NCBI GenBank assembly: GCA_017631325.1
Contig: JAGBTM010000045.1
Location: 6,037-70,036 of the forward strand
Origin: Clostridia bacterium
Lineage (GTDB): Bacteria > Bacillota > Clostridia > Oscillospirales > CAG-272
Reading direction: 5' to 3'
DNA length: 64,000 nucleotides
In this document: positions 2,339-37,995 of the stretch, one piece after another
Numbering within the stretch: the first letter of the stretch is position 1
Layout: every line of letters begins with the position of its first letter
Notes under the pieces: generated by a model
Databases searched by the model: none
The model's input: only the letters and a program-made list of their open reading frames with translations
Told to the model about the DNA's origin: nothing
Program-made: the position numbers and the translations under genes

Positions 2339-3511
2339 CTAAAAAAGGAGCGTGTCTACCTTGTCTATTAAAGCTGTAAGTTGCTTTGTATAGTGCTCTT
2401 TTCTCTCCTTGGCGCCCTGCTCGTCCGGTCTGCGTATCGTTCTGCGAAGGAGTCTGGTGTAGCCGATAATTCGCGCCTTGTTTTCGAGCTGGGCGATAGC
2501 TGTGGCGTCCTCGGTGCCAAGATATTTTCTAAGCGCCAAATTCCAAAATCTTCCTGAGGTTTCACGGTCGTAGCCCATAAATTTCTTGATTTCATCGTGG
2601 TTTAACTCCGAAAAGCCAAGAAAGGCGTTATACATAGAGCCAAACTCGAATATTGGATGTCCAACACACAAGGTATCTAGGTCTATGAGCAAAGGCTCTC
2701 CGTTCTGTATCATAACGTTATTCGTGTGATAATCGCCGTGTAAAAGATTATTGGTTTTAGGTATTTGCCGTATCATATCACAAAGCTTTGCGCCCTGTTC
2801 GGCAGGAATATGCTTTGAAATGAAATCAACCCAGCTAAGCGCCGTTTCTCGCATATCCGGAAAATCGCCCTCATCGGCCTCGACTGCGTGTATGCTCTTA
2901 AGCAGCTCAACGTAATATTCTGCGGGCTTCTCCAGATTTTCGGGGTTGTTTATTATAAGCCTTGTAACGTTCACCGCATCAAGAAGCTCGGTTACCGTAC
3001 CGTAGCCCTCACCGACACGCACGATGCCGTACGGAATTGCCGTATTAACACCAAGCACGAAGGCGCGTCTTGCGTTTTCTCTTTCCTGACGGATTTCAGG
3101 CAATGCGTCTTTCGAGTGATAGGTTTTGAGGATGGTTTCGGCATCGTAGCGATAGACGGCACCGTTAGCGCCTTTGGCGATAAACTCACATCCCTCAACG
3201 CTCATTCGTCTGTACGCCTTTTCAACCGTAAGCATATCGGTAAAACCGGTCATATCCAAAACATCGTACACTTCCGGTGCCACGTTAATAATTGCGAGCT
3301 TCGGTTCGTCCTTTCGGAGCTTAAGCAGCAAACGTAATCCCGCAGAGGATATGTACTTGAGTTTATCTGCGTCAATAACGGTGTGCTTATCCTTGTTTTC
3401 AGCCTTTATTTCAAAAAAACTTTTCTCTACATCCGATACGTTCGATGCGTCTATTCTGCCTTCCACAGCAATGTAAATAATATTTTTATCAGTACGGTAG
3501 GTGACGTTCAT
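2339..3511 (-). CDS. STAS domain fused to an APH/choline-kinase-like phosphotransferase domain
   Basis: The N-terminal ~110 aa are STAS-like (KYISSAGLRLLL, DMTGFTDML). The C-terminus has the kinase-fold motifs GANGAVY, HGDYHTNNV and IDLDT. Start set at the ATG at 3511, which has GGAGG upstream, 1 nt after the upstream stop. Confidence 0.75.
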   Translation of the reverse strand: MNVTYRTDKNIIYIAVEGRIDASNVSDVEKSFFEIKAENKDKHTVIDADKLKYISSAGLRLLLKLRKDEPKLAIINVAPEVYDVLDMTGFTDMLTVEKAYRRMSVEGCEFIAKGANGAVYRYDAETILKTYHSKDALPEIRQERENARRAFVLGVNTAIPYGIVRVGEGYGTVTELLDAVNVTRLIINNPENLEKPAEYYVELLKSIHAVEADEGDFPDMRETALSWVDFISKHIPAEQGAKLCDMIRQIPKTNNLLHGDYHTNNVMIQNGEPLLIDLDTLCVGHPIFEFGSMYNAFLGFSELNHDEIKKFMGYDRETSGRFWNLALRKYLGTEDATAIAQLENKARIIGYTRLLRRTIRRPDEQGAKERKEHYTKQLTALIDKVDTLLF

Positions 3512-3512
3512 T

Positions 3513-4079
3513 TTACTCCTCCAAACCAAATATTTTCTCAACGAGAGCCTTATATTCTTTGTAAGCGCTCGTGTCTGCAAGACGCTCGGTATATTTCATA
3601 ATACTGCGATAATACCAAGCCTGCGCACTCACGTCTGTCTGATTAAATTTCTGCCACACAGCGTCGCCTTCTACTGTAAAATCGCGATAAATCGCACGAA
3701 TGTTCGAGAGTTTGTCACCGAGCCAGAGTCTCAACACGTCGATATCATCGGTTTCTCTGAGCTTTTCAAGCGACTCCGACTTGCGAATTTGCCAGGTATC
3801 AGCCGGGGGCAAATCCTCGCGCTTATTTTCCGTCTCAGAGGCGACGAGCTCTCTTACGCGCGGGCCGAATTTTTCACCGATTTCGTCCATCGTAACGCCT
3901 GCGTCCTCTACAACGTCGTGCAGAAGCGCTGCGGCAATAACACTCTGGTCATCGGTCATAGTGCCTACGATGACACCGGCCTCCAACGGATGCAAAATGT
4001 AAGGGGCATCACTTTTTTTGCGTCGCATTCCGTCGTGCGCCCTTACGCAAAAGGCAGCAGCCTCACTTACAAGCTCCAT
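3513..4079 (-). CDS. Mesh1/SpoT-type HD-domain small alarmone hydrolase, predicted (p)ppGpp hydrolase
   Basis: 188 aa. It aligns by eye along its length with Mesh1-type hydrolases: AHDGMRRK..PYILHP, AALLHDVVED, FG.RV..LV and a trailing D.L.N block. Confidence 0.8.
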   Translation of the reverse strand: MELVSEAAAFCVRAHDGMRRKKSDAPYILHPLEAGVIVGTMTDDQSVIAAALLHDVVEDAGVTMDEIGEKFGPRVRELVASETENKREDLPPADTWQIRKSESLEKLRETDDIDVLRLWLGDKLSNIRAIYRDFTVEGDAVWQKFNQTDVSAQAWYYRSIMKYTERLADTSAYKEYKALVEKIFGLEE

Positions 4080-4369
4080 TATTCTATCACCAAAATATCA
4101 GCAAAGCCAGTCATCTCAAAAACTTCCATTACAAGCTCGCAAACGTTGATAAGCTTCAGAGCACCCTTTGATTTCTTCTGCGTGGAAAGTAGAACGCGCA
4201 AGCCTGCGGAAGAAATGTACGCAAGCTTTTCGCAGTCGATAACAAGCGAGCCCTCTCCACTGTAATTTTCATTAATAAAGCTATCAAGCTGGGGAGCGGT
4301 ATTGGTATCGAGGCGTCCCTCAAGTGCCACGTTAAGGGCACCGTTATTGTTATTGAAGGTTATATTCAT
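4079..4369 (-). CDS. STAS-domain protein (anti-sigma-factor-antagonist family)
   Basis: 96 aa. YISSAGLRVLL phosphorylatable-Ser motif and EMTGFADIL C-terminal block. The stop overlaps the next start by 1 nt. Confidence 0.85.
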   Translation of the reverse strand: MNITFNNNNGALNVALEGRLDTNTAPQLDSFINENYSGEGSLVIDCEKLAYISSAGLRVLLSTQKKSKGALKLINVCELVMEVFEMTGFADILVIE

Positions 4370-4380
4370 TTTTTATCTCC

Positions 4381-4980
4381 TTATGCAAATTTTTTGACTA
4401 TGATTATATCTGCCTGATTTCCCTTAACGCCAACTATAACGTCGTCGGCAACAGAAGCGATAACGGATTTTTCAAGCTCGTCCCAGGCCTCAGTCTGCTC
4501 TTTTTCCTTTACCGAGTTTCTGTACTGGTCAAGCGTCCAAAGATAAGAGTAATCCACGCCCTCGTTATACCCCGTTGCAAAATGGAAGGCTGCATAGGAC
4601 TGGTCAAAGGACAGGCTACTGTCCTCGCTCAAGAAGAAGTTTTCAATAGCGTTACGGATTTTACCTACTATTCCGACTGCCGCTGCGTTCTTCTTGCTTC
4701 TTGAAATGTTGATGAGCTCTTCCTTCTTACCCGTATTGAACTCGGGAATTTTTATAGATACGTTGACCTTACATACACCGTCCTCAAAATCAATCCAAAG
4801 CTCTCCGGAGAAGTCGTCGATAATATTGGGGAGCATACCGTCGATTTCCTCACAGAGAAGTCGCAGCTGCATAGCCTGTTTGTGAGTAAGAGAGTTGTAC
4901 TTTGCTACTCTTTCGCTTTCGTTCAGAATAGCGGCGAGATCCTTGGTTCCGTTGTCAATCTTGCATACGTTTGATTTCAT
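4381..4980 (-). CDS. hypothetical protein, no recognisable domain
   Basis: 199 aa ORF with AAGGAG RBS, embedded between two STAS genes. No TM segment or known motif seen. Confidence 0.6.
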   Translation of the reverse strand: MKSNVCKIDNGTKDLAAILNESERVAKYNSLTHKQAMQLRLLCEEIDGMLPNIIDDFSGELWIDFEDGVCKVNVSIKIPEFNTGKKEELINISRSKKNAAAVGIVGKIRNAIENFFLSEDSSLSFDQSYAAFHFATGYNEGVDYSYLWTLDQYRNSVKEKEQTEAWDELEKSVIASVADDVIVGVKGNQADIIIVKKFA

Positions 4981-5009
4981 GAGTAATTCTCCTTTGTTGG
5001 TATTTAACT

Positions 5010-5306
5010 TTATTCAATAGTGATAATATCGGCAAAGCCTGTCATCTCAAATACGTCCATAACCTGCTCGCAAACGTTAATAAGCTTCATCGCGCCATGC
5101 TTATTCATTTTCTTCTGCGTAGCGAGTAAAACGCGCAGTCCCGCACTGGATATGTACTCAAGACCTTTCATATCCAAAATAAGATTCTCGGTGCTTTCTA
5201 CGTTTTCGTTAACAGTATTTTCAAGAGCGGGGGCTGTGGTTGTATCAAGTCTGCCAACCACCTCAACTACGGTTTTATCTGAGCTTTTCTTGATTTCAAT
5301 AGTCAT
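5010..5306 (-). CDS. STAS-domain protein (anti-sigma-factor-antagonist family)
   Basis: 98 aa paralog of 4079..4369, with YISSAGLRVLL and EMTGFADII. Confidence 0.85.
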   Translation of the reverse strand: MTIEIKKSSDKTVVEVVGRLDTTTAPALENTVNENVESTENLILDMKGLEYISSAGLRVLLATQKKMNKHGAMKLINVCEQVMDVFEMTGFADIITIE

Positions 5307-5320
5307 AAATTACTGCTCCT

Positions 5321-8161
5321 TTATATCTTTTTAATCATAGTGAGAACGTTTTGCTCGTTTTCATAAGCGTAGGACACGGAGTCCATAGTCTTTTTGGTAA
5401 TGAAAATACCAAGACCGCCTATTTCACGCTCCTCAGCAGAGAGTGTAATATCGGGATCCGGTCTCTTCAGGGGGTCAAAGGGTACTCCACTGTCTGCCAT
5501 ACGGAAGGTGACGGTGCGTTCTTTCTCGTCAAAGCCAATACCGAGGCTAACCTCACCCTGCGAGCCCTCGTAAGCGTAGTGAGCTACGTTGACGAACACC
5601 TCTTCGATAGCCACGCATATTGCCGTTTGTATTCTCATTGGGCATTTATACGTCTCAAGCATTTCGTCAACGAAGCCAAGCACGTCAGAGACCGCATCAA
5701 GTTTCGCCTCGAAAATTCTATTCGTCATAAGCTCGCCTCCTTTTTTATTTTTGGGGTTATAGTCAAACATCAGCATCGTAATGTCGTCAAACTGAGGTGC
5801 CTCACCGACGAAGCTGTCAATATCAGCCTTAAGCGAGGGCAAAAGCGCCGTCGCATTCAAATCAGCGTTGCGGTTCATAAAGTTAATAAGCCTATCCTCG
5901 CCGTAAAGCTGATTATCCTTGTCCGTTGCCTCTGGAACACCGTCTGTATAAAGGAAGAGTCTGTCACCCGGAGAAAGCGTAAGCTCGCCTACACGGTAGC
6001 GTACGCCCTCCATACCCGCAAGAACGAATCCTGCGCGAGTTCTGAGATACTCAAAGCTTCCGTTTGCTCTCTTGACTAGAGGCGGATTATGGCCTGCGTT
6101 TGCAAACTGCATGGTTCCCGTAGTAAGGTCCAGTATACCCATCCATGCAGTAACGAACATACCTGACTCGTTATTCTCACAGAGCTTTTCGTTTGCTCTT
6201 GTGAAGATATCGTTTACAGCCATACCACCCTCAGCCAAATCCTTGATAATGGTTTTAGCAGTCATCATAAACATAGCAGCCGGTATTCCCTTGCCTGATA
6301 CGTCGGCGGCAAGAAATGCAACGGTCGTGTCGCTGAGCTTATAGAAATCGTAGAAGTCTCCTCCGACCTCCTTTGCTGCTATCATCTGCGCGTATATTTC
6401 GAACTGCTCGTCACTCGGGAAATTAGTAGGAAGAGCCGAGAGCTGTATTTGTTTTGCATACTCAAGCTCCTTGTCTATACGCGCGGCTGCTTCAGCAATG
6501 TAGCGCTTAAGAGTTGACACCGTAGAGTTAATATCGTCTGACAGGGACGAAAACTCCTGGCTTGAGCGCACGTCAACCGTTACGTTCAAATCGCCCTTTG
6601 TTATACGCCCGAGAGTGTCGTTTATTTTCTGCAGGTTGTTAATGATAACTCGTTTTATAAGCATGTAGATAAATACGAAGAGCGTGGCAAAAATGATTAC
6701 CTGCATGAATATGCTCGTGTAGAGCGAGGCGTCACGCATAAAGGTTGCCTCGGCCTCGGGAATAGCCGCAATAATGCAGTAACCCTCAACGAACTTGAAT
6801 ACGTACAAAAATTTTTCGCTAAGCTCACTTTTTCCGTCCACAATATTCGCGGAATAAAGCTTAGTAGCAGTCTTGCCGTCCTGCATTTCTCCCTCTGGAT
6901 TAATACCTATATGGGAAACAGAGGCTCCTGCATACTCGTTGTCGATTACGAGAGAAAGCGTTTCGTCAAGAACAGCAACGAAGCCCCTCGTACCGACGTG
7001 ACGGTTCTTAGTAAAGTCGATAACGTACTCATCGAGCTTCTCGTGGAACTGCTCTGCGTCATAGCCAACCTGAATGAAGCCGCCGTCCCGAAGATTTATA
7101 GCGGCGTACTTTCTCCACACCGAGCCGTCCTTCCCTCTCGGGCTGTATTTCTGTACGAAGCAATCCTGCTCTGCAAGGACATCGACGAACTCCTTGGACT
7201 GCTCCTTGGTTTTCATATCGTAGTTTATGCTGTCGGCCTCTGTGGATTTGTAAATTATTCCCGCAGAACTGACAACGTTAATTTCAATTATACCGTTCTC
7301 GCTTGCTAAGTCCGAAAGCGACGTGTCGGGGTTTAACTCGTATTCGCCCTTTACCTTATCGGCAATGGCAAGAAGCTGTGCGTCGGATTTTCCCTTAATG
7401 TCCGCTTCAATATCATTTATTGCGGTAGTAAACATCTCTACCGTTTCAATGTTCACCATTCCGTTCTGGAGAATGTAGGTAAACAAGCTTGTAACGAGGA
7501 ATGCGATAGCAATACATGCCAAAAGCCAGCGCTGGAAGGTGTTCGCTATTTTCTCGTTACCCTTTCTTACTATGAAACGCTCGCGACTCAGCAAGGATAC
7601 GATAAGGATAGCAGAGCCAACGGCCACCGCGTTGCCTACAATCATAGGAATGGTCGCGCCCTTGACAAATTCAAATGCCTCAGAGGAGTTACCCATATTT
7701 GTGATAAATATCAAAATCATATGGATAACCTCACACGCGACGGCGATGCAAACGCCGTATCCCCACGTGGGCTTCTTGTTGTCAAACATACGCTTTCTTA
7801 ATCCGGCGGCCATAAAGCCCGCGAGAATCGTTGCAATGCTGCACGCTATTCTGGTATAGGTGCCTGCGCCCCAATATACCGAGAACCATCGATAAAGACC
7901 ACCTATAAATCCTGAAATAATGCCTGCCGGCGCGCCAAATATAAGTCCTGCCGACAGAGGCGCTGCATCACGCACGTTTACGACTGCGCCAAGCCACTTA
8001 ACTCCGTAGCTTGAGGCAAAGGCCGACACGCCTCCGAAAAGAACGCCTATAATAATCTGCTTTTTCATATATGGCAGCTTGCCAAAGGACGTGTATTTAT
8101 CCGCAAGGTAAACGCCGACCACGAGCGCGCAGTTAAATAATATCGGAATAATCAGCTCCAT
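5321..8161 (-). CDS. multi-domain membrane sensor: 5TM LytS-type N-terminus, extracytoplasmic region, HAMP, SpoIIE/PP2C phosphatase and C-terminal RsbW-like HATPase kinase
   Basis: 946 aa. N-terminal TM bundle with NVRDAAPLSAGLIFG. HAMP-like segment after the TM at about aa 490. GGDFYDF..AADVSGKGIPAAMFM (SpoIIE). C-terminal EEVFVNVAHYAY..GGLGIF (GHKL anti-sigma kinase type). Confidence 0.85.
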   Translation of the reverse strand: MELIIPILFNCALVVGVYLADKYTSFGKLPYMKKQIIIGVLFGGVSAFASSYGVKWLGAVVNVRDAAPLSAGLIFGAPAGIISGFIGGLYRWFSVYWGAGTYTRIACSIATILAGFMAAGLRKRMFDNKKPTWGYGVCIAVACEVIHMILIFITNMGNSSEAFEFVKGATIPMIVGNAVAVGSAILIVSLLSRERFIVRKGNEKIANTFQRWLLACIAIAFLVTSLFTYILQNGMVNIETVEMFTTAINDIEADIKGKSDAQLLAIADKVKGEYELNPDTSLSDLASENGIIEINVVSSAGIIYKSTEADSINYDMKTKEQSKEFVDVLAEQDCFVQKYSPRGKDGSVWRKYAAINLRDGGFIQVGYDAEQFHEKLDEYVIDFTKNRHVGTRGFVAVLDETLSLVIDNEYAGASVSHIGINPEGEMQDGKTATKLYSANIVDGKSELSEKFLYVFKFVEGYCIIAAIPEAEATFMRDASLYTSIFMQVIIFATLFVFIYMLIKRVIINNLQKINDTLGRITKGDLNVTVDVRSSQEFSSLSDDINSTVSTLKRYIAEAAARIDKELEYAKQIQLSALPTNFPSDEQFEIYAQMIAAKEVGGDFYDFYKLSDTTVAFLAADVSGKGIPAAMFMMTAKTIIKDLAEGGMAVNDIFTRANEKLCENNESGMFVTAWMGILDLTTGTMQFANAGHNPPLVKRANGSFEYLRTRAGFVLAGMEGVRYRVGELTLSPGDRLFLYTDGVPEATDKDNQLYGEDRLINFMNRNADLNATALLPSLKADIDSFVGEAPQFDDITMLMFDYNPKNKKGGELMTNRIFEAKLDAVSDVLGFVDEMLETYKCPMRIQTAICVAIEEVFVNVAHYAYEGSQGEVSLGIGFDEKERTVTFRMADSGVPFDPLKRPDPDITLSAEEREIGGLGIFITKKTMDSVSYAYENEQNVLTMIKKI

Positions 8162-8171
8162 TTACACACCC

Positions 8172-9128
8172 TCATTGTAAGCCAAGCAAGGTCTTGGCGA
8201 AATCTCCAAGTATTTCACCGGCAACGGCAAGAAGCATAAGCAGTATCATATATACGGTCATGCTGGCTCCGTCCACCGCGTTTTTAGTAATATTATAGTA
8301 GAAGTTGAACTGTCCGTGCGAATTCGTTTCACGGTCCTGGTGCCATTGATAAGTGATAACGTCGTCGGTATCGTAGCTGTTGGGAATATAATTTTTATAC
8401 AGCTCCTGCTCTAAACGACGGATACGGTAACAGCCGTCGTCGTTGAGGTCGTAGTCCTCGCTTATGGAAATCGTGATGATAGCCTTTTTGAGCTTCTGGC
8501 GGTGGAATGAGCCAACGCGAGTGATTTGCTCGGGTAGAAGTCTTGGCTCGTTGATACGAACCGAATATCCGTGCTTCTCCGAAAGAACAGGCGAGGTAAC
8601 CAAATCTCTAAATCGGCTTAAAAGACTTCCCGCTCCCACACGCGACTTGAACAGCTTGTCAAGGGATCTATGGGGCATACGCCAGATGAAATACGCTTCG
8701 TCGTTATCGATAGACGGCTGAATTGACTTGAGGTCTATATCCATAAGAGTGCCATCTGCGAGTGACGAAAGGCTATAATCGAGCGTGCCGACATGTACGA
8801 TGTCCACGGTTTTGCCAAGATACGCAATTTCAGACGTGAAATCGTTCTTCTTATAATCTATAATGCATGCGGAGCCAAAGATGGCCTGCAATATTTTCGT
8901 ATCGTTAAAAAGCGTCGAAACGTCATTTATCTCCTCGCGAGAAATTGCAAACGGTATGTAAACACGCATACGTGTGGTGAGCTTCACACCGCGTATACGG
9001 ACTGCCAAATCGACGTAGCTGTCACCCTTGGGATTTAGCCAGTCGTGAAGATAAATGGTGCAGGTGTCATCACCGTCGGTCCATATAGCCCAGCCGTCGT
9101 CAACGAATTTTCTTTGCTTTTTTGCCAT
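8172..9128 (-). CDS. hypothetical protein with a C-terminal TM anchor
   Basis: 318 aa with AGGAG RBS. Only 18 nt separate it from the guaD stop and 10 nt from the next start. One hydrophobic helix at the extreme C-terminus. No known motif. Confidence 0.6.
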   Translation of the reverse strand: MAKKQRKFVDDGWAIWTDGDDTCTIYLHDWLNPKGDSYVDLAVRIRGVKLTTRMRVYIPFAISREEINDVSTLFNDTKILQAIFGSACIIDYKKNDFTSEIAYLGKTVDIVHVGTLDYSLSSLADGTLMDIDLKSIQPSIDNDEAYFIWRMPHRSLDKLFKSRVGAGSLLSRFRDLVTSPVLSEKHGYSVRINEPRLLPEQITRVGSFHRQKLKKAIITISISEDYDLNDDGCYRIRRLEQELYKNYIPNSYDTDDVITYQWHQDRETNSHGQFNFYYNITKNAVDGASMTVYMILLMLLAVAGEILGDFAKTLLGLQ

Positions 9129-9146
9129 TTTTACGTCTACTCCTAA

Positions 9147-10442
9147 TCAAAAAATCTTGTTTCCTGAAACGAATTTTGCAACGATGCCCTTCTCGTCAAG
9201 CCCAAGATACACCGCGCGCTCCATTCTTTCAGAGAGTGTTAGTGGCTGCGGGTGAGAAAGCATGCTGTCGTCCATTACAACAGCATCAAATTCGTATCCC
9301 TCATCAAAGCTTCCCACCTTGCCAAAGAAGGCACCTCCGCCCTTGGTGGCAAGATAAAAGGCCTCGGAGAATACAAGCGGCTTGTACGCTTCATCTACCA
9401 TTCTGAAGTACATCTTAGAGACCTGAATTGCGTCGGTTATTGCTCTGAACATAGATATGCTCTGACCTGCCGCAACGTCGGTGCCAAGTCCTATATTTAA
9501 TCCCAAGTCAAGATATTTGCGTATCGGTGCGATGCCTGAGGTGAGGTTCATATTAGATGAGGGACAATGCGCAATGAACACTCCGTTTTTACGCATAAGC
9601 TCCACCTCGGCGTCGCTCGACCAAACGCAATGCGCCATTACGGTCTTGACGTCGGTATTGATATCGTCGTTTTTTCCAAAAAGGTCGTATTCGTTATACA
9701 CGTCACCGTAAAAGAGATTATCAGGGCGCAGAGATTTTACAAATTCTATTTCCCCTTTACTCTCCGAAAGATGTGACTGTACGGGAATACCGTAGGCCAT
9801 CTGAATTTCACGAAGCTGCTCCATCAGTGCGTCCGTGCAGCACGGTATAAAGCGAGGCGTGAGTATAGGCCTTGTGTTCTTAAATTTATCCTTTGTGGCG
9901 TTTATCCAGCCAAAAGTGGTGTATGCGGATATATCCGCGCTCTTCTCAACGAGGCCCTCGCTCGCTTCCCTGTCCATATTAACCTTGCCTACGTAGCTGA
10001 CAAGTCCTGACTGCTCCATAAGCTCCATAAGAAGCTCGGTAGCATAGCGGTGACGGGTTGCGAAAATAGAGCATCTTGAAGTAGCGCTATGCTTAATGGC
10101 AGAGGCAAACATACCGTAAGCCAAATTGGCGTACTCGAGGCTCTCGTACTTTTCCTCCTCGGGAAAGGTATAACGGTTAAGCCACTCCATAAGCTCAAGG
10201 TCCATACACATTCCGCGAAAGGCGTACTGAGGTGCGTGAAGGTGCAAATCAACCATACCGGGAAAAATCAGAGCGTCACCGTAATCGTAAAGCGAGAGGC
10301 TCTTATATTCCTCGGGCAAAACGTCAAATACGCCCTTTGAAACACCCTCAACGCAAACGGCATAGCCATTCTCGTGAAGGTCAAGCGCACTCGGATTTTT
10401 CGTTTGACAAATATTGCCCTTTATTACAAAGCTATTATTCAT
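9147..10442 (-). CDS. guaD: guanine deaminase (amidohydrolase superfamily)
   Basis: 431 aa. PGMVDLHLHAPQY metal-binding HxH, SHLSES motif and a C-terminal GTD block, as in amidohydrolase-type guanine deaminases. Confidence 0.75.
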   Translation of the reverse strand: MNNSFVIKGNICQTKNPSALDLHENGYAVCVEGVSKGVFDVLPEEYKSLSLYDYGDALIFPGMVDLHLHAPQYAFRGMCMDLELMEWLNRYTFPEEEKYESLEYANLAYGMFASAIKHSATSRCSIFATRHRYATELLMELMEQSGLVSYVGKVNMDREASEGLVEKSADISAYTTFGWINATKDKFKNTRPILTPRFIPCCTDALMEQLREIQMAYGIPVQSHLSESKGEIEFVKSLRPDNLFYGDVYNEYDLFGKNDDINTDVKTVMAHCVWSSDAEVELMRKNGVFIAHCPSSNMNLTSGIAPIRKYLDLGLNIGLGTDVAAGQSISMFRAITDAIQVSKMYFRMVDEAYKPLVFSEAFYLATKGGGAFFGKVGSFDEGYEFDAVVMDDSMLSHPQPLTLSERMERAVYLGLDEKGIVAKFVSGNKIF

Positions 10443-10491
10443 AGCGTCCTCGTTTCAAATTAAGATAAATGTGATTTATACTATAAAGAGC

Positions 10492-10620
10492 CTATCGGCT
10501 TTATGCATTCAAAGATGCAGCGCTCTCTGTTAGACGATTATGCTAAGTGAGGCAGATATAAGTTTCTGCCTCGGTATAAGTCTGCTATGTAGCATTTTAT
10601 ATCACGCCTAAAGCCGATAG
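10492..10620 (-). promoter_or_regulatory. structured 5' element upstream of guaD (nested helices, class unknown)
   Basis: Outer 12 bp helix 10492-10503 / 10609-10620, extendable to 14 of 15. It encloses a hairpin at 10504-10519 and a helix 10540-45 / 10590-95, which in turn holds an 8 bp hairpin at 10549-10572. Strand assigned only from the downstream gene. Confidence 0.4.
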
Positions 10621-10686
10621 ACCAAATATAAAAACCAAGCTAGTGTTTATTTTTTATATACTGCTTATCTGGATTTTAACTAATTA

Positions 10687-10908
10687 TTAATAACGGAACG
10701 AGTTGAAGTATTGGCCGACGGCAATAAAATATTCCTGCCAGTCAAATTTGGGTTCGATGTCGTACTTGTCTAAAACGGTATTTAAATCTGCTACCTTCTG
10801 GAAGATTTCCTGGATCTGATCCTTTTCTTCCTGAGTGTATTTTTCGTAGTTATCTAACAAATCCTCGATTACTACCTTAAACTTTTTGATTAATTCCTTC
10901 TTTTCCAT
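10687..10908 (-). CDS. small acidic hypothetical protein
   Basis: 73 aa from the ATG at 10908, which has GGAGG 8 nt upstream. The ORF track starts 5 codons earlier without an RBS. Confidence 0.5.
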   Translation of the reverse strand: MEKKELIKKFKVVIEDLLDNYEKYTQEEKDQIQEIFQKVADLNTVLDKYDIEPKFDWQEYFIAVGQYFNSFRY

Positions 10909-10945
10909 TAGAATTACCTCCATTTATGTAACTTGGTTTTTATAT

Positions 10946-11509
10946 TTAAACGTTGCTGGTTGCGTCGCTAATGAACTGTGTAAGCTCATTTGCGGTCTGC
11001 TCTACACGAGAGACGAAACGCATTCTGTAGCTTCCGAAGTCCCCGAGGTCCAAATATATATCTCCGTATTCCTCGGAGAACAGATGAACGACGAAGGCTC
11101 GGATAAATTCCTTATGATAGAGATACGGAAGCTCAAAGTGAATGTAAGCCTCGGCAATCTCAGAAATCGGTACCTTTGCTTCCTTTGTAGTGTGGATATA
11201 GAGAAACTCGCCGTCAGTCTCCAGCTCAACATCGGGGAGCTTGCAGTACAGAATATAGGGACGAACAAAGCCAAAATAACCCACAGTACAAAAGAAAAGC
11301 ACGCCTACAATTACGACGCCAACAAGAGCCGGCTCGGCAAAAAGCGTAGCATCAACAAGCAAAATGCTAAGAGGCATAACGATTGCGGCGGCGGCCATAA
11401 TTATGGCACCCAAAATAAACTGGAGCTTCAAAATTCCGAAGCTCTTCATTTTTCTAACTAAAACTCTCATTAATTTATCCTTGCCTTTTCCAGTAATTTT
11501 AAAATTCAT
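10946..11509 (-). CDS. membrane protein with two TM helices and a PH-like (bPH/DUF304-like) C-terminal domain
   Basis: 187 aa. Two hydrophobic helices followed by a soluble domain. ATGA overlap with the upstream gene. Confidence 0.55.
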   Translation of the reverse strand: MNFKITGKGKDKLMRVLVRKMKSFGILKLQFILGAIIMAAAAIVMPLSILLVDATLFAEPALVGVVIVGVLFFCTVGYFGFVRPYILYCKLPDVELETDGEFLYIHTTKEAKVPISEIAEAYIHFELPYLYHKEFIRAFVVHLFSEEYGDIYLDLGDFGSYRMRFVSRVEQTANELTQFISDATSNV

Positions 11510-11844
11510 GCTTTCTTGTTTGAAAGAAACTTAAAAAGGAGCAAAACGACAAGCAAGACGAGAAAGAGTATAGCGCTTATTTTGTGAACGGTTGCAAGAG
11601 CTACAAGTCCACTAACGTTCATGATAATAATGCCTGTAATTAACGCTATGCCGTAAAAAGCTCTCATAATAATTTCAAGAGCGGGTATTTTCCACTCCTT
11701 TTTCGTAGCCACGGTGTATGCCATAAGCACCACAACTCCCAAAACGGAAATCGCAATATGCACGGGCATTCCCGTAAGCTTAAGCAAGCATAATGACGCT
11801 CCTATGACCAGGAGTATAGGTGCAAAAATTAAATCTTTTTTCAT
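11506..11844 (-). CDS. small integral membrane protein
   Basis: About 112 aa from the ATG at 11844, with four predicted hydrophobic helices. Confidence 0.5.
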   Translation of the reverse strand: MKKDLIFAPILLVIGASLCLLKLTGMPVHIAISVLGVVVLMAYTVATKKEWKIPALEIIMRAFYGIALITGIIIMNVSGLVALATVHKISAILFLVLLVVLLLFKFLSNKKA

Positions 11845-11869
11845 ATTGATTATCCTTATCGTTAAGTCA

Positions 11870-12553
11870 TTAATTTTTAGTACGGCGGTTGTTGATTTTA
11901 TCAAGTCCAAAAAACATAAATCCTGCCGCAACGAACGCTGCCGAAATGATGGCTATCCACATAAGTACACCCGGCAGGCCCTGAGTTTCGAGATTTACAA
12001 AGAAATAAGGGTAAATCAGGGGTGTTTTAGCTCCTGTGGGGGTGAGAATCGTAGAATCAAAGCCTAGGATTATCGCCTGTATAAGAAGAAAAATCACGTA
12101 AGCAAGAGGAAAAGATATCGATGCGATAGGATAATACCACTTGCACGTCTTACGCTCGTAGAAAAGGAACCAGTCCGCTATGTACATAATGGGAAGCAGC
12201 ACGTGAAAAAGAACGCTTCCGACACGGAAGTTCGCCTGTGGGTCACGACCTGCAGCACCTGCGAGCAAGAGATTAAACACAAGGAACGTCAAAAGAATAC
12301 CGAGCATTCCGATAAACTTCAAAAGCGGTGCCGTTCTGACGTATCCTTCGTCCTTTCGCTTGGCTGTGCTGATAAGAGATGCGAGCATTACACCAAGGCA
12401 AAGAAAATTGCTGATATTAGTGAAATACACGTAGAAATCCCATCTGAACGTATTGACGTCGTCAAAAATTCCAAGACATGCAACACAGCCTACAATTCCA
12501 AGCGTGCAATAAACCGTCTGGTAAATCAACTGTACCGTTCTGTTTTTAATCAT
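11870..12553 (-). CDS. polytopic membrane protein (possibly Pr6Pr-family-like)
   Basis: About 227 aa from the ATG at 12553, which has GGAGG upstream. Six hydrophobic segments. Family assignment is tentative. Confidence 0.5.
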   Translation of the reverse strand: MIKNRTVQLIYQTVYCTLGIVGCVACLGIFDDVNTFRWDFYVYFTNISNFLCLGVMLASLISTAKRKDEGYVRTAPLLKFIGMLGILLTFLVFNLLLAGAAGRDPQANFRVGSVLFHVLLPIMYIADWFLFYERKTCKWYYPIASISFPLAYVIFLLIQAIILGFDSTILTPTGAKTPLIYPYFFVNLETQGLPGVLMWIAIISAAFVAAGFMFFGLDKINNRRTKN

Positions 12554-12602
12554 AAAATACCTCCATTTATCAGTAGATGTAGGCAAAAATAAACGCGCTA
12601 CA

Positions 12603-12917: not shown

Positions 12918-13685
12918 TTATTTTAGCATAGCGCAGGTTTCCTCTGCCCAGCTGTACTGTGTCATATATTCACCGTGAAACTCCGGCTTTCCATTAGCAA
13001 GATAGCTGATATAATCACACTGTATAAGTCCCGTGTCTATACGGTAGCAAGGCGTTTCGTGACGCAATACGTTCTCTGCCCCTACCGACCTGAGCGTGTT
13101 TTTCAGGTCCAAAACGAGCTGTCTTAGGTAGGTCGCGTTCTTCGTATCGTCGGTATCGTCGGGAAACATAACGGCGCATATCTGCTTTGCCGTCATACCG
13201 GCTCCGTTTCTGTCTACGAGAAAGGCAAATAGCTCCTTGGTTTTCAGTCGCTTGAAGACTAGCTTCTCTTCCCCTGCGTAGACCTCAAAATTGCCAAAGC
13301 ATTTTACCGTTAAGGGCTTTGACTTTTGATGCGTTCCCTTAATGTTGTCGATTTCGGTCTGAACGTCCTCTGCCGATATGGGCTTCATCAGATATCCCGA
13401 GGCATGCAGCTTGAAGGCGGGAATAGCGTACTCCTCGTAGCCCGTGCAAAAAACTATTTTACAGCTTGGGCGCAGGTTAATGATCTTCTCTGCCAGCGCA
13501 AGACCGCCCATACCTCGCATGTTTATATCCAGAAATGCAACGTCAACGGGATTTTTTTGCACGAAGTCAAGCGCCTTCTCGCAGTCCGAGAACTTTGCGA
13601 CCTCGGTTATATCCCGAGAGGCCTTGATGGCTGCCGTCAAGGCGCCAAGCATTAACACTTCGTCATCAACTGCTATTGCAATCAT
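12918..13685 (-). CDS. response regulator: receiver domain plus SARP/OmpR-type winged-helix DNA-binding domain
   Basis: The receiver shows DDE.., FLDINMRG and MKP. The C-terminal half shows the FGNFEV..G..L.F...K..ELFAFL pattern of SARP-type wHTH domains. Confidence 0.8.
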   Translation of the reverse strand: MIAIAVDDEVLMLGALTAAIKASRDITEVAKFSDCEKALDFVQKNPVDVAFLDINMRGMGGLALAEKIINLRPSCKIVFCTGYEEYAIPAFKLHASGYLMKPISAEDVQTEIDNIKGTHQKSKPLTVKCFGNFEVYAGEEKLVFKRLKTKELFAFLVDRNGAGMTAKQICAVMFPDDTDDTKNATYLRQLVLDLKNTLRSVGAENVLRHETPCYRIDTGLIQCDYISYLANGKPEFHGEYMTQYSWAEETCAMLK

Positions 13686-15532
13686 TTCTGTGCCTCCTTA
13701 GGAATTTTTATGAGAACCCTTGTTCCGACACCTATCGCACTTTCGATTTCGAGAGTACCGGAAACCATAACCTTAAGCCTTTCTCGAATGTTTCTGAGGC
13801 CTAGGTGCTTTCTGTCGTCGACGTGGGACTCCGTATCAAAGCCGACGCCGTCGTCAACAACCGAAATACAATAGTGGGTATCGGTTTCGTAAGAAATTAC
13901 GTTGATAGTACCTCCACTTGGAAGCTTCATAAGTCCGTGCTTTATCGCGTTTTCAACAATGGGCTGAACGGTAAGGGCGGGTATATGGAAATCCGATGAA
14001 TTCATCTGGAAGGTAAAGGTCATATCGGGAAAACGCACGTTTTCTATACTGACGTAGTGATGGACGTGCTCCATCTCCTGCGACATCAAAATGGGCTTGG
14101 GGTTGTCAAGCTCACCGAAATTTCCTCGCAGGTATTTGGCAAAGCTATGCACAAGCTCTCCTGCTTTTTGCGGGTCGAGCTTACACAGCTGCTCTATACT
14201 GCCGAGTGTGTTATAAACAAAGTGGGGACGGATTTGGCTCATCATCGTGGATATACGGCTTTCGGCAAGCTCGGCATTAAGCACGATTTTCTCCATTTCC
14301 AATTCCTTGGCCTTTGTTGCAACGTTGATGTTGTGGGGAATAAGCTTAAGTATCATAACCGTTGCAACGGCAATCAAAATCATAAAGACGTGCTGAGATA
14401 CGATACCGCCCTCCCATGCGCCAAGACCCGTTGCCAAGGCGTCTATTCCAAATGAAACGAAGGACGAAAGGACACCGAGATATATCCATTTTACGCTCGT
14501 TTTCTTTTCCGAAAATTCCTTTATAAGACAAGCTGAAAGCACGGTATTTGCGACAGCCTGCACCAAAACCCACCAAATCCAGCTGTCATAGAAGAATAAG
14601 TCTGTGATGATGGGCAGAATAAATAATACAGCGTCCACGAGCAGTAAGACCAGAACCATAGCGTTGGCATAAAACCTCGTAGATTTTACAAAGCAGGCCG
14701 TTATCATTGAAACGAATAGCATATAGAGCATCATTGAGAGTCCTAAAACCGTGGTATTTGTAATAATAGACTCGCTCCAGAACGAAATACCGTGGGCGCT
14801 ATACACAACGTACAGACCTGCAAACAGAACCACAAGGCCTATAAGCCAGATAATTCTGCTGCTTTTAACGTGAATTAAGCTTGAAAAAAGCGCGATACCA
14901 AGAAAGACGATGGATAAAAGCATTAAGATAATTCCGGTATTTCTCTGCCCCTCGCCTGCGAGAAGTACGTTTTTTTCAAAATCAATTCCAGTCCAAAGAG
15001 TAATACCAGATAGCATTTCGTCAATGGCGTTTTCGTTACCGTATGCGTGGGGATTATGTACGACGATTTCAATTGTCTGGTCGCTTTCGCTGAAGAAGGA
15101 GTGAGCAGTCCAGCTCACACCGCAGGCGGAGCTACCGTACAAGCGATTTTCCATTTCAATGGAAACGGGCGAGCCTGAGCCCTCGTAAAACGTAAGATTA
15201 ATGTGGTTGGTATAGAACGCGATAGGCAAATCGCCTCTGTAAATGCCTATATATTCACCGTCGGGTGCAAGCATGTGAAAATTGCCTCGCAGGGTAACGT
15301 CACCTTTCGTGGACGAAATATGCTCGCCCTCCACTATATCATGCCACTCACCGTCCTCGATACGATATTCACCGTCAAAATAGACCTGTGCCACCAGTGC
15401 GGGAATGGCCTGACTGCTGGTGCTGTTGCCAAACCACAAAAGGCCGATAGCAAGGGCAAACAAGAGCAGAATAGATACGGCCTGAAAATACGGCTTTTTT
15501 AATATGGAAAATTTGTCTTTGATATCCGACAT
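13682..15532 (-). CDS. sensor histidine kinase, LytS/YehU type, with a large extracytoplasmic domain and a multi-TM module
   Basis: 616 aa. QIRPHFVYNTL (His_kinase PF06580-type H box), HATPase N and G boxes, about 7 TM helices after a ~170 aa outside domain. Overlaps the RR start by 4 nt. Confidence 0.85.
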   Translation of the reverse strand: MSDIKDKFSILKKPYFQAVSILLLFALAIGLLWFGNSTSSQAIPALVAQVYFDGEYRIEDGEWHDIVEGEHISSTKGDVTLRGNFHMLAPDGEYIGIYRGDLPIAFYTNHINLTFYEGSGSPVSIEMENRLYGSSACGVSWTAHSFFSESDQTIEIVVHNPHAYGNENAIDEMLSGITLWTGIDFEKNVLLAGEGQRNTGIILMLLSIVFLGIALFSSLIHVKSSRIIWLIGLVVLFAGLYVVYSAHGISFWSESIITNTTVLGLSMMLYMLFVSMITACFVKSTRFYANAMVLVLLLVDAVLFILPIITDLFFYDSWIWWVLVQAVANTVLSACLIKEFSEKKTSVKWIYLGVLSSFVSFGIDALATGLGAWEGGIVSQHVFMILIAVATVMILKLIPHNINVATKAKELEMEKIVLNAELAESRISTMMSQIRPHFVYNTLGSIEQLCKLDPQKAGELVHSFAKYLRGNFGELDNPKPILMSQEMEHVHHYVSIENVRFPDMTFTFQMNSSDFHIPALTVQPIVENAIKHGLMKLPSGGTINVISYETDTHYCISVVDDGVGFDTESHVDDRKHLGLRNIRERLKVMVSGTLEIESAIGVGTRVLIKIPKEAQK

Positions 15533-31024: not shown

Positions 31025-31206
31025 AGCTACCGTTATCGGTGCTTATTTTATGCTCAGGTTACCTCTATCTGTCTTGTTTTTAGCCACCTTTATCGGCACT
31101 TCCCGTTTGGGCTTAGCCACCGTTATCAGCACTTATGCCAATGTTTTTGGTTTATCTCGGTTATGAGTGCTTTTACCCATATCTTAAGTACCGTTATTAT
31201 AATTAG
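31021..31206. repeat. four dispersed direct copies of a ~25 bp motif (TTAGCYACCGTTATCRGCACTTAT)
   Basis: Copies at 31021-46, 31077-102, 31111-36 and a degenerate one at 31182-206. Spacings are 56, 34 and 71 bp. Confidence 0.7.
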
Positions 31207-31955
31207 GTGTTAATGCTTTTCTTAGACCTGTGCCATATTTTATCCGACTCGGTCTTGATACGTGAGATATTAAGAGAGCGTCTGGATATTGCGCGTGCGA
31301 ACTTCTTATACGCCAGCTTATCTCTGCCGTGAATATCCGTGCCGAGTGCAACTACCTTACCCTCCGAAATCCACGAGCGGATATGCTTCTTAAGAAAAAT
31401 GCAGTTGAGCGACGAAACGTTAAGCTGCAGGCGTGCTCCGACCTCTAAAAGCTGATGTATATTCTCGGGGTCGTATCTGTCTGCGTGAGCTATTATGACG
31501 TCAATGCCTGCGCGGGTCATCTGCTCAACAGACTCGGTATACTTATAGCTGAAGGTGTTCATGGGAAGCTCCAAAAGAAGCGTTCTGGTTCCCTCTATAA
31601 AAAGGCTATCAAGCTCGGGCATTTCCTCAATACCGTCGCAAATAAGGACCTCTGCGCCAAGGGTGATGGCGGGCATATCGGGTGTGAGGTGTGAGCGAAG
31701 CTGCCCGTATGCAGAATTTCTCTTCGAGATAAACGTTGACACATGGTGCTTGTGAGGATAAAAATGAGGTGCTGCTATAATACGGCTTACGCCCTGTGCC
31801 GATGCCGAGTTAAGCTGGAAAAGCGCATCGTCAACCGAGATGCAGCCGTGGTCTGCTCCTGGTAAAATATGTGCGTGAAAATCTACAATGTCAAATTTAG
31901 TCGTCGTCTTCATAATTTTTGTCGCTATACCTGGAAGAATACCTGCCGTAGCCAT
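31203..31955 (-). CDS. PHP-family protein-tyrosine phosphatase (CpsB/YwqE type)
   Basis: DFHAHILPGADHG and APHFY motifs. An alternative start at 31913 (MKTTTKF) is possible. Overlaps the BY-kinase gene end. Confidence 0.8.
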   Translation of the reverse strand: MATAGILPGIATKIMKTTTKFDIVDFHAHILPGADHGCISVDDALFQLNSASAQGVSRIIAAPHFYPHKHHVSTFISKRNSAYGQLRSHLTPDMPAITLGAEVLICDGIEEMPELDSLFIEGTRTLLLELPMNTFSYKYTESVEQMTRAGIDVIIAHADRYDPENIHQLLEVGARLQLNVSSLNCIFLKKHIRSWISEGKVVALGTDIHGRDKLAYKKFARAISRRSLNISRIKTESDKIWHRSKKSINT

Positions 31956-32670
31956 ATCCGTATTTTCCGGAGCCGTTCTTCATCTTGACACCCGAAATAA
32001 CAAAGCCGAATACAACTGCGTTAATCTGCTGAAGCTGCTCTACGCACTGCTTGACACCCTTGACGTCGGAGCGGTCGGCAAGGACCGAAAGAACGTATCC
32101 GTTGACGTAGTTTGAGAACAGAAGAGCGTCCGCAACTACGTTTACGGGCAAAGTATCTATTATTACGTAATCGAACCTCTCCTCACAGATATCCATAAGC
32201 TGCTTCATTCTGGGTGAGGATAAGAGCTGAGTTGGGTTAATCGGGCGTGTACCCGAGGTCATTATCGTCAGGTTCTTGTCCTTGATTTCAATGAAGCTAG
32301 GTTCCTTATCAACGCCGGCAAGGTACTCACTTAAACCGTGACCCTTTGGATTTAATCCGAACATTCTGGCAATTCTCGGTGCTCTCATGTCTGCGTCGAT
32401 TAGAAGTATTCTTTTATCCTTGGAGTTGTGCGAAATGGTATAAGCGAGGTTGGCCGACACCGTGGATTTGCCCTCGGAGGGAACCGCGCTGGTAACTGCT
32501 ATCTTACGGCACTTATCGTTAAGTCCCATATAGACGATATTCGTATACAGAGTTTTATAGGCCTCGCGCATCGCAAATGGCGACTTGTCATCTATAAGTC
32601 CGACGTTTCGTCTTGGATGCTTCGCCTTGACCTTAGGCTTAAACAGTCCTAGCATCGAAAATAATTTCAT
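31897..32670 (-). CDS. BY-kinase (CpsD/CapB-type tyrosine autokinase)
   Basis: Walker A SAVPSEGKST, Walker A' LLIDADMR, Walker B VIIDT, and a C-terminal Tyr cluster GKYGYGYGRYSSRY. Confidence 0.85.
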   Translation of the reverse strand: MKLFSMLGLFKPKVKAKHPRRNVGLIDDKSPFAMREAYKTLYTNIVYMGLNDKCRKIAVTSAVPSEGKSTVSANLAYTISHNSKDKRILLIDADMRAPRIARMFGLNPKGHGLSEYLAGVDKEPSFIEIKDKNLTIMTSGTRPINPTQLLSSPRMKQLMDICEERFDYVIIDTLPVNVVADALLFSNYVNGYVLSVLADRSDVKGVKQCVEQLQQINAVVFGFVISGVKMKNGSGKYGYGYGRYSSRYSDKNYEDDD

Positions 32671-32696
32671 AATAATTCCTTCATAAAATTATATAA

Positions 32697-33461
32697 TTAT
32701 TCTTCTGTTTCAGGCTTAGGAATAACACCGAGAATGGGAATATCAAAGCTGTCCTCGAGCTTTTCCTTGGAATGTACCACGATATCAGCTCTGGAAATAA
32801 TGTAAATTGCGAGCATAGAAATTACAAGTCCTGCGGCAAAGCCGATTACCGAATTTCTAAGAACGTTTTTGCCATCGGGAGATGCGGGGAGTATGGGGGT
32901 ATCTATCTCTACGACCTTAACGGCGTAGCCCATTCCCTCGAATTTATCAAGAAGAATGTTTCCGCCTACCGTAGCGATATCCTTAGAAAGCTCAGGGTCG
33001 CTTGTGGTAACGTCGAAGTAATAGCAGGTTGTCTCCGCGTTAGCAAGAGTAACCGAGGTCATGCCGGTAAGCGCAGCCGTTGTAAGCTTGCCAACGTATT
33101 TGTCGCCGTATACCTCTTCGTTCTCGAGTTGGTTTATAACGTCCTGGCAGAAATTGTTTGTGTTGATTATCTCGCGTATGTTAGCAATCATACCCTGCAT
33201 AGCGAGAATTTCGCCCGAGTTAAGACCCGAGGTCTCCGACGTGGAGTTGGTATAAGGAACCTTAAGAACCATATACTTACCCGATGCGGTATACTTGTCG
33301 CTCTGCAAAAACTGAGAATAAACTCCGAGTGCGGCAGAAAGAAGCACCGACACGAGAGCTATTATCCAAATCTTTGGCAGAAAGATTTCAGCCAAGCTTT
33401 TGATAGTTATTTCTTCTCTTTTTACGTTGTTTTTGTTTTCGTTCATATTAGCCTCGTCCAA
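32697..33461 (-). CDS. Wzz/CpsC-type chain-length determinant / BY-kinase transmembrane activator
   Basis: 254 aa with N- and C-terminal TM helices flanking a periplasmic-type domain. It lies immediately upstream of the BY-kinase. Confidence 0.7.
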   Translation of the reverse strand: MDEANMNENKNNVKREEITIKSLAEIFLPKIWIIALVSVLLSAALGVYSQFLQSDKYTASGKYMVLKVPYTNSTSETSGLNSGEILAMQGMIANIREIINTNNFCQDVINQLENEEVYGDKYVGKLTTAALTGMTSVTLANAETTCYYFDVTTSDPELSKDIATVGGNILLDKFEGMGYAVKVVEIDTPILPASPDGKNVLRNSVIGFAAGLVISMLAIYIISRADIVVHSKEKLEDSFDIPILGVIPKPETEE

Positions 33462-36120: not shown

Positions 36121-36144
36121 TTTTTAACCTTCCTTTATTGGCTC

Positions 36145-37914: not shown

Positions 37915-37995
37915 ATTCTCTCCCTTCTCTGCCACACTTAGCCGTGGCAGTTTTTATTTCACTTTAATATACGAGAATTTTTACAAAAACACTTT

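Follow-up and report, generated by a model that had tools for sequence, protein, structure and literature searches.

A probable elaborated copy of a widespread, sigma-less partner-switching cassette, with a STAS-kinase fusion, in a Clostridia genome

The RsbU/RsbV/RsbW-sigma B and SpoIIE/SpoIIAA/SpoIIAB-sigma F systems of Bacillus bring together a PP2C phosphatase, a STAS protein with a phospho-serine motif and a kinase of the GHKL family. Parts of partner switches are commonly fused, as in Rv1364c of Mycobacterium tuberculosis, where PP2C, RsbW-like kinase and STAS domains share one polypeptide, linked to sigma F. Outputs other than a sigma factor are documented as well, for SypE/SypA, BtrUVW and RbaV (PMC8256260). 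SypE of Vibrio fischeri holds an RsbW-like kinase and a PP2C phosphatase in one protein and acts on Ser56 of the single-domain STAS protein SypA, with an output that is not a known sigma factor (PMC8256260). In SiaABCD of Pseudomonas aeruginosa, a partner switch controlling a diguanylate cyclase, a PP2C/kinase pair sets the phosphorylation of a small switch protein, which directly activates this nucleotide second-messenger enzyme, SiaD (PMC8457831). Here we analyse a predicted operon of eight genes (g1 to g8, in transcription order), all on the minus strand of a 64,000-nucleotide stretch of DNA from a Clostridia bacterium. This whole stretch is called the window, and all coordinates are window positions. 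The operon combines partner-switch parts with a predicted small alarmone hydrolase and a STAS-kinase fusion. We put at about 55% the probability that this locus represents a more elaborate version of a sigma-less partner-switching cassette that is widespread among Bacillota of the gut and rumen. A first-pass annotation of the same genes had taken an anti-sigma factor and sigma factor pair as the normal end of such modules, a premise which the documented non-sigma outputs have made outdated.

Both activities expected to act on STAS proteins are found in g3 (5321-8161), a predicted membrane sensor of 946 aa. Its Pfam domains are 5TM-5TMR_LYT (aa 31-188), HAMP (502-552), SpoIIE/PP2C (611-800) and HATPase_c_2 (817-944). 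The phosphatase domain (PF07228, E 9e-49, positions 5762-6331) carries the metal-binding motifs GGDFYD, DVSGKG, TDGV and DDIT in its translation, and the RsbW/SpoIIAB-type serine kinase domain (PF13581, E 5e-24, positions 5330-5713) carries an N-box, EEVFVN, as well as the G1 and G2 boxes, DSG and GGLG. Full-length homologues of g3 were found in six related loci (L009, L013, L019, L069, L089 and L092), and the match to the SiaA family model is weak (65 bits, for a cut-off of 700). The joining of kinase and phosphatase recalls SypE, as does the lack of a known sigma factor at the output. SypE, however, is a cytoplasmic protein under the control of a receiver domain, whereas g3 is a 5TMR-LYT/HAMP membrane sensor, and the Syp system has no STAS-enzyme fusion, alarmone hydrolase or pseudokinase.

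Two single-domain STAS proteins accompany the sensor, g4 (5010-5306, 98 aa, STAS E 1e-18, TIGR00377 at 80 bits, above cut-off) and its paralogue g6 (4079-4369, 96 aa, STAS E 1e-12, TIGR00377 at 66 bits). Both contain YISSAGLRVLL, and the motif YISSAGLR(V/L)LL is indeed common to all three STAS domains of the operon, the third being the N-terminus of g8, as the first-pass annotation had noticed. The SS[AS]G phospho-site motif is present in all of the 146 STAS domains of the related loci. The predicted phospho-sites are Ser54 of g4, Ser54 of g6 and Ser56 of g8 (codon at 3344-3346); the last is invariant in our alignment, and we take it from the motif alignment to be the equivalent of RsbV Ser56 and SypA Ser56. 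By the look of their motifs, the parts for STAS-serine phosphorylation and dephosphorylation are all present and catalytically competent. They belong to the same PP2C, STAS and GHKL kinase families as those of the Bacillus systems, and the phospho-serine motif is conserved. The cassette differs from these systems by having no sigma factor, kinase and phosphatase in one membrane protein, and three STAS domains, one of them fused to an enzyme.

This enzyme is the C-terminal part of g8 (2339-3511, 390 aa), in which Pfam recognises a STAS domain (aa 4-98) followed by an APH-like kinase domain (aa 109-296, E 1e-18). An AlphaFold2 model of g8 is confident (pLDDT 95.8, pTM 0.86), and its Foldseek matches are APH, choline, fructosamine-3 (FN3K) and methylthioribose (MTR) kinases. 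The glycine loop, the beta-3 lysine, the HxDxxxxN motif and the metal-binding Asp of APH-fold kinases are all found. Seven residues (S56, G114, K129, H258, D260, N265 and D277) are invariant in a 47-sequence alignment, and 80 of 82 related sequences retain the kinase Brenner motif. From these residues, the fused kinase is predicted to be catalytically intact. We tried to name its substrate from structure, and the PDB profile search and Foldseek gave generic APH-fold kinases alone. The protein scores 103 bits against TIGR02172, an uncharacterised family of APH-like paralogues with a cut-off of 228. STAS-APH proteins form 649 clusters at 50% identity (E<=1e-30); nearly all of the best 150 clusters listed cover both domains and are about 390 aa or longer. 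A relative is present in at least 597 species-representative genomes. Rv1364c is not known to have an APH-fold kinase or an HD_4 partner, unlike the cassette. The switch domain is covalently fused to its effector here, unlike in SiaABCD, where the output is c-di-GMP synthesis; that of the cassette would be an APH-fold kinase together with a (p)ppGpp-type hydrolase.

The comparison covered more than 90 related loci. Domain counts were made on the best 80 species loci, 47-54% identical to g8, by mapping the domains of the window onto their open reading frames (ORFs). HATPase_c_2 is present in 64 of the 80 loci, free STAS in 59 and PP2C in at least 39; in 38 of the 80, the HATPase_c_2 domain is joined C-terminally to STAS-APH, as confirmed with Pfam. 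Judging from these profiles, four parts make up the conserved core, namely the PP2C phosphatase, the RsbW-type kinase, free STAS (one protein or several) and the STAS-APH fusion, and it is the STAS-APH kinase, not the hydrolase, that appears as the invariant effector of the cassette family. The carriers, by the labels of metagenome-assembled genomes (MAGs), are Oscillospiraceae, Lachnospiraceae, Erysipelotrichaceae, Anaerovoracaceae/Mogibacterium, Candidatus Limiplasma and one Coriobacteriales; cultured carriers include Coprococcus catus and Flavonifractor sp. An82. Relatives that are 74-78% identical keep all eight genes between different flanks. The sister lineage L089 keeps g2, the sensor, STAS, HD_4 and STAS-APH, with a hydrolase 60% identical to that of the window, and is devoid of g1 and g5. 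The gene neighbourhood is conserved in part: the core and the hydrolase link recur across lineages, and g1 and g2 are local.

Several variants of the fusion were seen in passing. The triple fusions (L008:5880-7472, L014:10276-11880 and 36 other loci) are proteins of about 520-540 aa, and in the relative P0245 HATPase_c_2 stands at the N-terminus of STAS-APH instead. In L042:10007-11176 and L076:10007-11176, from horse-gut and other Clostridia MAGs, STAS-APH is split in two ORFs, which may reflect a frameshift or a pseudogene.

The absence of a sigma factor, already pointed out in the first-pass annotation, held in domain searches: none was found within about 8 kb of the cassette. The sole sigma genes of the window, rpoD (35065-36120) and spoIIGA-sigE (40556-42152), lie 25 kb or more from it. 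In the related loci, the families to which two or more of 88 flanking ORFs could be assigned included no sigma-70 domain. From the triple fusions, with the order STAS-APH-RsbW kinase, it would seem that APH stands where classical systems have the sigma factor. The earlier proposal that enzymes, rather than a sigma factor, form the output is thus upheld as to the conserved sigma-less unit, and not as to a hydrolase or guanine metabolism as the main output, since the kinase is the invariant component. Also in line with the earlier statement that no system with this wiring had been described, our literature searches found no paper on a STAS-APH fusion, on TIGR02172, or, in the relevant sense, on partner switching or STAS together with a small alarmone hydrolase. 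Compared to known systems, the new features would be the covalent joining of STAS and APH-fold kinase in one protein, an attached subfamily of RelH-type hydrolases, and a PHP-domain protein that can replace the hydrolase. The additions of this particular clade appear to be a pseudokinase and a duplicated STAS protein.

The hydrolase gene, g7 (3513-4079, 188 aa), lies directly upstream of g8. Its only matches are HD_4 (E 2e-19) and HD, meaning that it is a stand-alone enzyme without synthetase or regulatory domains. The closest PDB entries are 7QOE (RelH of Leptospira levettii, E 1e-24), 4YF1 (Lmo0812, 5e-22) and 7QOC (RelH of Corynebacterium glutamicum, 7e-19), which g7 resembles in being a single-domain HD_4 protein, of about 190 aa and with all hydrolase motifs. 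The Mesh1 structures 3NR1 and 5VXA follow at E values of about 4e-13 to 4e-12. The "Mesh1-type" label given earlier is therefore right in that g7 looks like a small alarmone hydrolase, and needs amending in that, by PDB E values, it is nearer to the RelH/MixSpo type. Its structural relatives belong to a MixSpo/RelH family separate from Mesh1, and HD_4 enzymes cleave the 3'-diphosphate of (pp)pGpp (PMC10434055). Hydrolysis of (p)ppGpp has been demonstrated for RelH of both L. levettii and C. glutamicum (PMC9293644). Eight residues (R20, H30, H54, D55, E58, D59, D122 and N126) are invariant across 24 cassette-linked homologues of g7, which is predicted to be a (p)ppGpp-type hydrolase with all hydrolase motifs kept. 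Small alarmone hydrolases described so far are orphans or antitoxins of toxic alarmone synthetases; they are said to have no regulatory domains, and little is understood of how they are controlled (PMC9293644). The g7 subfamily, in contrast, sits inside a partner-switching operon, which would offer a concrete route to post-translational control of alarmone breakdown.

Is this association more than local? HD_4 was found on the same strand, within 6 kb of STAS-APH, in 21 of the 42 unfused loci, the type of the window's own cassette, and in 2 of the 38 triple-fusion loci. Mostly it stands directly 5' of STAS-APH, the gap between the two ranging from -23 to +52 nt, and the link recurs across several Bacillota lineages with differing flanks, down to minimal four-gene operons (sensor, HD_4, STAS-APH, STAS) between unrelated flanking genes. 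Identity to g7 is 43-55% for the HD_4 proteins of these cassettes, and every catalytic residue is retained. In the reverse direction, six members sampled from an HD_4 profile search (49-60% identical to g7) all had STAS-APH directly downstream and a free STAS, and in 5 of the 6 contigs a PP2C-HATPase_c_2 gene lay upstream. Based on the adjacency in 21 of 42 unfused loci and on the 6 of 6 found in the reverse search, the link between partner-switch parts, small alarmone hydrolase and STAS-kinase fusion, which was the core of the earlier proposal, is conserved. Since the hydrolase occurs in half of the unfused cassettes and in few fused ones, it is best considered an accessory.

Gene g5 (4381-4980, 199 aa) had been left as a protein of no assigned function, and it has no family match in Pfam or NCBIfam searches, HATPase_c_2 included. 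Its predicted fold goes further. With an AlphaFold2 model of medium confidence (pLDDT 69, pTM 0.69), the top 13 Foldseek matches are all SpoIIAB, UsfX or RsbW (E 6e-4 to 7e-2, TMt 0.56-0.66); SiaB comes further down the list. Placing g5 by sequence was attempted and dropped: hhalign against an alignment of RsbW domains gave a 45-residue match at E 0.026 with a probability of 1.9%, too weak a support, so that the assignment rests on the predicted fold. Met49 aligns with the position of the N-box Asn, and the DxGxG (G1) and GxGxG (G2) boxes were not found in the g5 sequence. We consider with moderate confidence that g5 is a degenerate RsbW/SpoIIAB-like (GHKL-fold) pseudokinase. Homologues adjoin STAS-APH cassettes in L010 and L033.

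From these parts, the following mechanism can be proposed. A membrane or extracellular signal perceived by the N-terminal half of g3 would shift the balance between its kinase and phosphatase, and this balance would determine whether the SSAG serines of g4, of g6 and of the STAS part of g8 are phosphorylated. The state of the g8 STAS domain would in turn switch the attached kinase on or off, and it may also control the co-produced hydrolase g7. Devoid of ATP-binding motifs, g5 could bind unphosphorylated g4 or g6 and form a second, non-catalytic branch of the switch. The output would be enzymatic rather than transcriptional, namely the phosphorylation of a small molecule coupled to the hydrolysis of (p)ppGpp-type 3'-phosphorylated nucleotides. 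If this is true, an enzyme-fused STAS effector would join sigma factors, secretion, biofilm regulators and a diguanylate cyclase as a further class of output, and the substrate of the g8 kinase may reveal an unrecognised small-molecule signal. Among the Bacillota of gut and rumen, at least 597 species-level genomes have the cassette, and since cultured strains are among them, experiments are feasible.

Several points weigh against this reading. The 80 loci were taken as the top tblastn hits to a single peptide pattern, and so form a non-random sample, and the counts made on them ignore phylogeny. About half of the unfused cassettes do without the hydrolase and the fused type rarely has it, and the correlated divergence of HD_4 and STAS-APH is not significant (Spearman 0.09); a Pearson coefficient of 0.44 was set aside, being driven by close relatives. 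The PDB and Foldseek matches of g8 are generic for the APH fold, with 12-18% identity. The g5 model is of medium confidence, with weak profile-profile support, and the co-transcription of g1 to g8 is a prediction.

Control of GTP pools by (p)ppGpp is established in Firmicutes. The first-pass annotation had seen in the operon a device gating alarmone or guanine pools through STAS phosphorylation. In such a model the hydrolase would be the main output, which STAS proteins hold or release, and a guanine deaminase would lower the precursors of GTP in the same pathway. This deaminase would be g1 (9147-10442, 431 aa), a member of the amidohydrolase superfamily (Amidohydro_1, E 3e-44). It matches over aa 5-431, i.e. 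full length, the Clostridium acetobutylicum chain 2I9U ("cytosine/guanine deaminase related protein", E 1e-114), and the human, yeast and E. coli guanine deaminases at E 1e-51 to 1e-63. Its scores remain under the NCBIfam guanine deaminase cut-offs (302 versus 375 bits for TIGR02967, 253 versus 351 for NF006679), so that the name given earlier is probable by the 2I9U match and falls short by the family models. The proximity to 2I9U, the 18 nt that separate g1 from g2, the presence in g7 of every motif of verified (p)ppGpp hydrolases (PMC9293644), and the fact that g1 and g7 both touch guanine nucleotide metabolism speak for such a pool model. Its difficulty lies in the distribution of the genes. 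Only the close relatives L004 and L006 (about 74-78% identical) have g1, it is missing from L089, and a g1-like amidohydrolase adjoins the cassette in none of the 80 species loci. The g1-like ORFs of L010 and of one Mogibacterium/Anaerovoracaceae lineage, which lie 3-8 kb 5' of the cassette, were rejected as parts of the system because unrelated genes (U32 peptidase, NUDIX, rhomboid, DHH) intervene. By sequence comparison, g1 was added to the operon in this clade alone and stands outside the conserved device of which it had been thought a part, and the idea of a guanine pool is weakened by this restriction to one clade. Moreover, many cassettes lack HD_4 or have PHP in its place while STAS-APH is always there, and the model gives the kinase no role. 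We regard it as doubtful.

A second possibility gives both enzymes a part: the APH kinase would phosphorylate a ribose hydroxyl of a nucleotide-like molecule, the neighbouring phosphohydrolase, HD_4 in the window and PHP or another HD protein in other genomes, would remove the phosphate, and the partner switch would decide between the two. The observation behind it came from clustering the neighbour ORFs, by which a PHP-domain protein of about 290 aa was found directly 3' of STAS-APH in 17 loci, 15 of them of the triple-fusion type (for instance L008:7493-8365, L038:11551-12471, L079:11178-12146, and 14 other loci). The best models of these proteins are 3',5'-nucleoside bisphosphate phosphatase and RNase RNM, at 100-116 bits, far under the cut-off of 400, and their PDB matches are 3E0F and 2YB1. 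In hidden Markov model searches of all loci, PHP and HD_4 never occurred in one locus (hypergeometric P 0.0014, without phylogeny correction). Taken together, one or the other lies directly beside the kinase gene in 40 of the 80 loci, and both come from families acting on nucleotide 3'-phosphates (PMC10434055 for HD_4). This suggests a functional pairing of the kinase with a phosphohydrolase from such families. Extra His_Phos_1 phosphatase genes in one lineage, and the sugar hydroxyls that APH-fold enzymes typically phosphorylate, go in the same direction. So do the fusions HD-CE-STAS-APH and, possibly, HD_4-STAS-APH and STAS-APH-PHP. Against it, we know of no APH-fold nucleotide 3'-kinase, the PHP scores are low, half of the loci have no phosphoesterase neighbour, and the fusions checked are singletons, at least one of which retains an internal Shine-Dalgarno sequence and ATG and could be a read-through or an error. 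This alternative is unlikely in our eyes. Its extended form, in which kinase and phosphohydrolase write and erase an alarmone-like, 3'-phosphorylated nucleotide or ribose signal that is kinase-made rather than RelA/SpoT-made, at a level set by the partner switch and the membrane signal, would be quite unlikely.

As to the fusions themselves, those found among the g8 relatives are HD-CE-STAS-APH, HD_4-STAS-APH, STAS-APH-PHP and HATPase_c_2-STAS-APH. Four fusions were checked, the last type not among them, and all were singletons at 90% clustering. L093:4096-5913 encodes HD_4-STAS-APH as a single ORF of 605 aa that keeps an internal GGAGGA and an ATG at the junction, and it may be a read-through or a sequencing error. 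L094:1938-3944 encodes HD-CE-STAS-APH as a single ORF of 668 aa, after a MatE-HATPase_c_2 gene, and looks genuine. Fusion proteins were not retained as proof of coupling, because of their singleton status and of the Shine-Dalgarno sequence and ATG inside the HD_4 fusion. The His_Phos_1 genes of the lineage mentioned above are two, one of 241 aa and one of 415 aa with tandem domains that scores as alpha-ribazole phosphatase, directly 5' of PP2C-HATPase_c_2 (L087:3116-5121, and also L088, L091, L046, L056 and L081). The hydrolase of this cassette variant was met in more than 150 data blocks.

A response to envelope stress or xenobiotics was considered next. The APH kinase would inactivate an antibiotic-like compound or modify an envelope precursor, and would be kept off until a LytS-like sensor detects damage. 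The 5TMR-LYT membrane domain of g3 would fit such a role, the closest structures to g8 are antibiotic kinases, and related cassettes include MATE-HATPase_c_2 fusions (7 to 9 cassettes) and DUF218, VanZ, D-Ala-D-Ala carboxypeptidase/dipeptidase and beta-lactamase-like neighbours. The resemblance to resistance kinases is however generic (12-18% identity), each of the envelope-related neighbours is seen in a few loci only, and the tight coupling to nucleotide phosphoesterases is left unexplained, which makes this explanation improbable. Finally, a conventional anti-sigma system, in which the kinase domain of g3 or else g5 would hold a sigma factor encoded elsewhere and the enzymes would be co-transcribed regulon members, finds some appeal in the SpoIIAB/RsbW-like fold predicted for g5, in the several sigma factors of a spore-forming organism (spoIIGA-sigE) and in the database annotation of g4, g6 and g8 as anti-sigma factor antagonists, but with no sigma gene within about 8 kb of the cassette, no sigma-70 domain recurring beside it in 80 species, and a covalent fusion of STAS to an enzyme, which argues that the enzyme is the controlled partner, it is very unlikely.

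Returning to the sigma-less cassette and its arrangement in the window, the eight ORFs of the first-pass annotation were all recovered at the same places, domain searches bore out the domains it had assigned, and the spacing is the one it had given (successive gaps of 18, 10, 14, 29 and 11 nt, a 1 nt overlap, then 1 nt, taking ATG 3511 as the start of g8). The mechanical ORF of g8 begins at TTG 3580; the ATG is backed by an identical database protein of 390 aa (P0001) and by homologues of 390 aa. A Shine-Dalgarno sequence precedes every start, as previously described (GAGGA, AGGAG, GAGGGTG, AAGGAG three times, GGAGGAG and GGTGA), the GGTGA of g7 being weaker. The hairpin and U-tract reported downstream of g8 are also present, on the minus strand at 2163-2204, and form a probable intrinsic terminator of the operon, with a 9 bp stem, AAGAGTCGA/TCGACTCTT, followed by TTTTTATG; the stretch 2150-2215 folds at -20.5 kcal/mol. 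Signals that might split the cluster were close to the background of shuffled sequences, with 10 terminator-like matches inside the operon for 8.6 expected, and 22 promoter-like matches for 14.6 +/- 3.7 expected. A single transcript over all eight genes is plausible on these grounds.

Upstream of g1, a 244 nt intergenic leader (10443-10690, minus strand) would be the promoter region. It shares the block CTTGGTTTTTATATTT.GTCT with the relative L004, in which the leader is kept across this short promoter-like block only. The leader is predicted to form a stable structure (-62 kcal/mol), which includes the hairpin GAGGCAGA...UCUGCCUC. A riboswitch or another known RNA 5' of g1 was searched for and discarded, as Rfam gave no match with the window at gathering thresholds or with the leader at E<=1. 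An anti-phage defence system was likewise ruled out as the identity of the operon, none of its eight proteins having a PADLOC match.

The second gene, g2 (8172-9128), encodes a protein of 318 aa with one C-terminal hydrophobic segment. Searches of Pfam, NCBIfam and PADLOC, and a profile search of the PDB, gave no match for it. In L089, which has neither g1 nor g5, a homologue (54% identical) directly precedes a sensor resembling g3. By its distribution, g2 appears to go with the g3-type sensor, in this clade and in its sister lineage L089 only. In L004, an extra gene of 529 aa from no known family (L004:2753-4342) is inserted between g1 and g2, and a gene with a Metallophos/5'-nucleotidase C-terminal domain (L004:12875-14338) is found two genes 3' of g8.

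Two kinds of transporter-like proteins were observed near STAS-APH in other genomes. MATE domains fused to a C-terminal HATPase_c_2 give proteins of about 580-610 aa in 7 to 9 STAS-APH cassettes (for instance L057:4487-6235, L061:7002-8741 and L094:125-1957), an architecture of which we know no description. A sodium:dicarboxylate symporter protein with about 140 extra N-terminal aa adjoins STAS-APH in 7 loci, mostly directly upstream (L013:8358-10004, L038:8325-9971 and 5 other loci).

Elsewhere in the window, markers of a spore former are an alpha/beta-type SASP gene (4-204), the dnaG-rpoD pair (35065-37935) and spoIIGA-sigE (40556-42152). About 2.5 kb upstream of the cluster and on the same strand, a two-component pair (12918-15532) encodes a His_kinase/HATPase_c sensor of 616 aa and a 255 aa response regulator. 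Between this pair and the cluster are four small ORFs of membrane-like character (10687-12586), none of them with a family match. Capsule-type genes are found further away, on the minus strand at 31203-33461, and encode a CpsB/CapC phosphatase-like protein, a ParA/AAA_31 tyrosine-kinase-like ATPase and a Wzz chain-length determinant.

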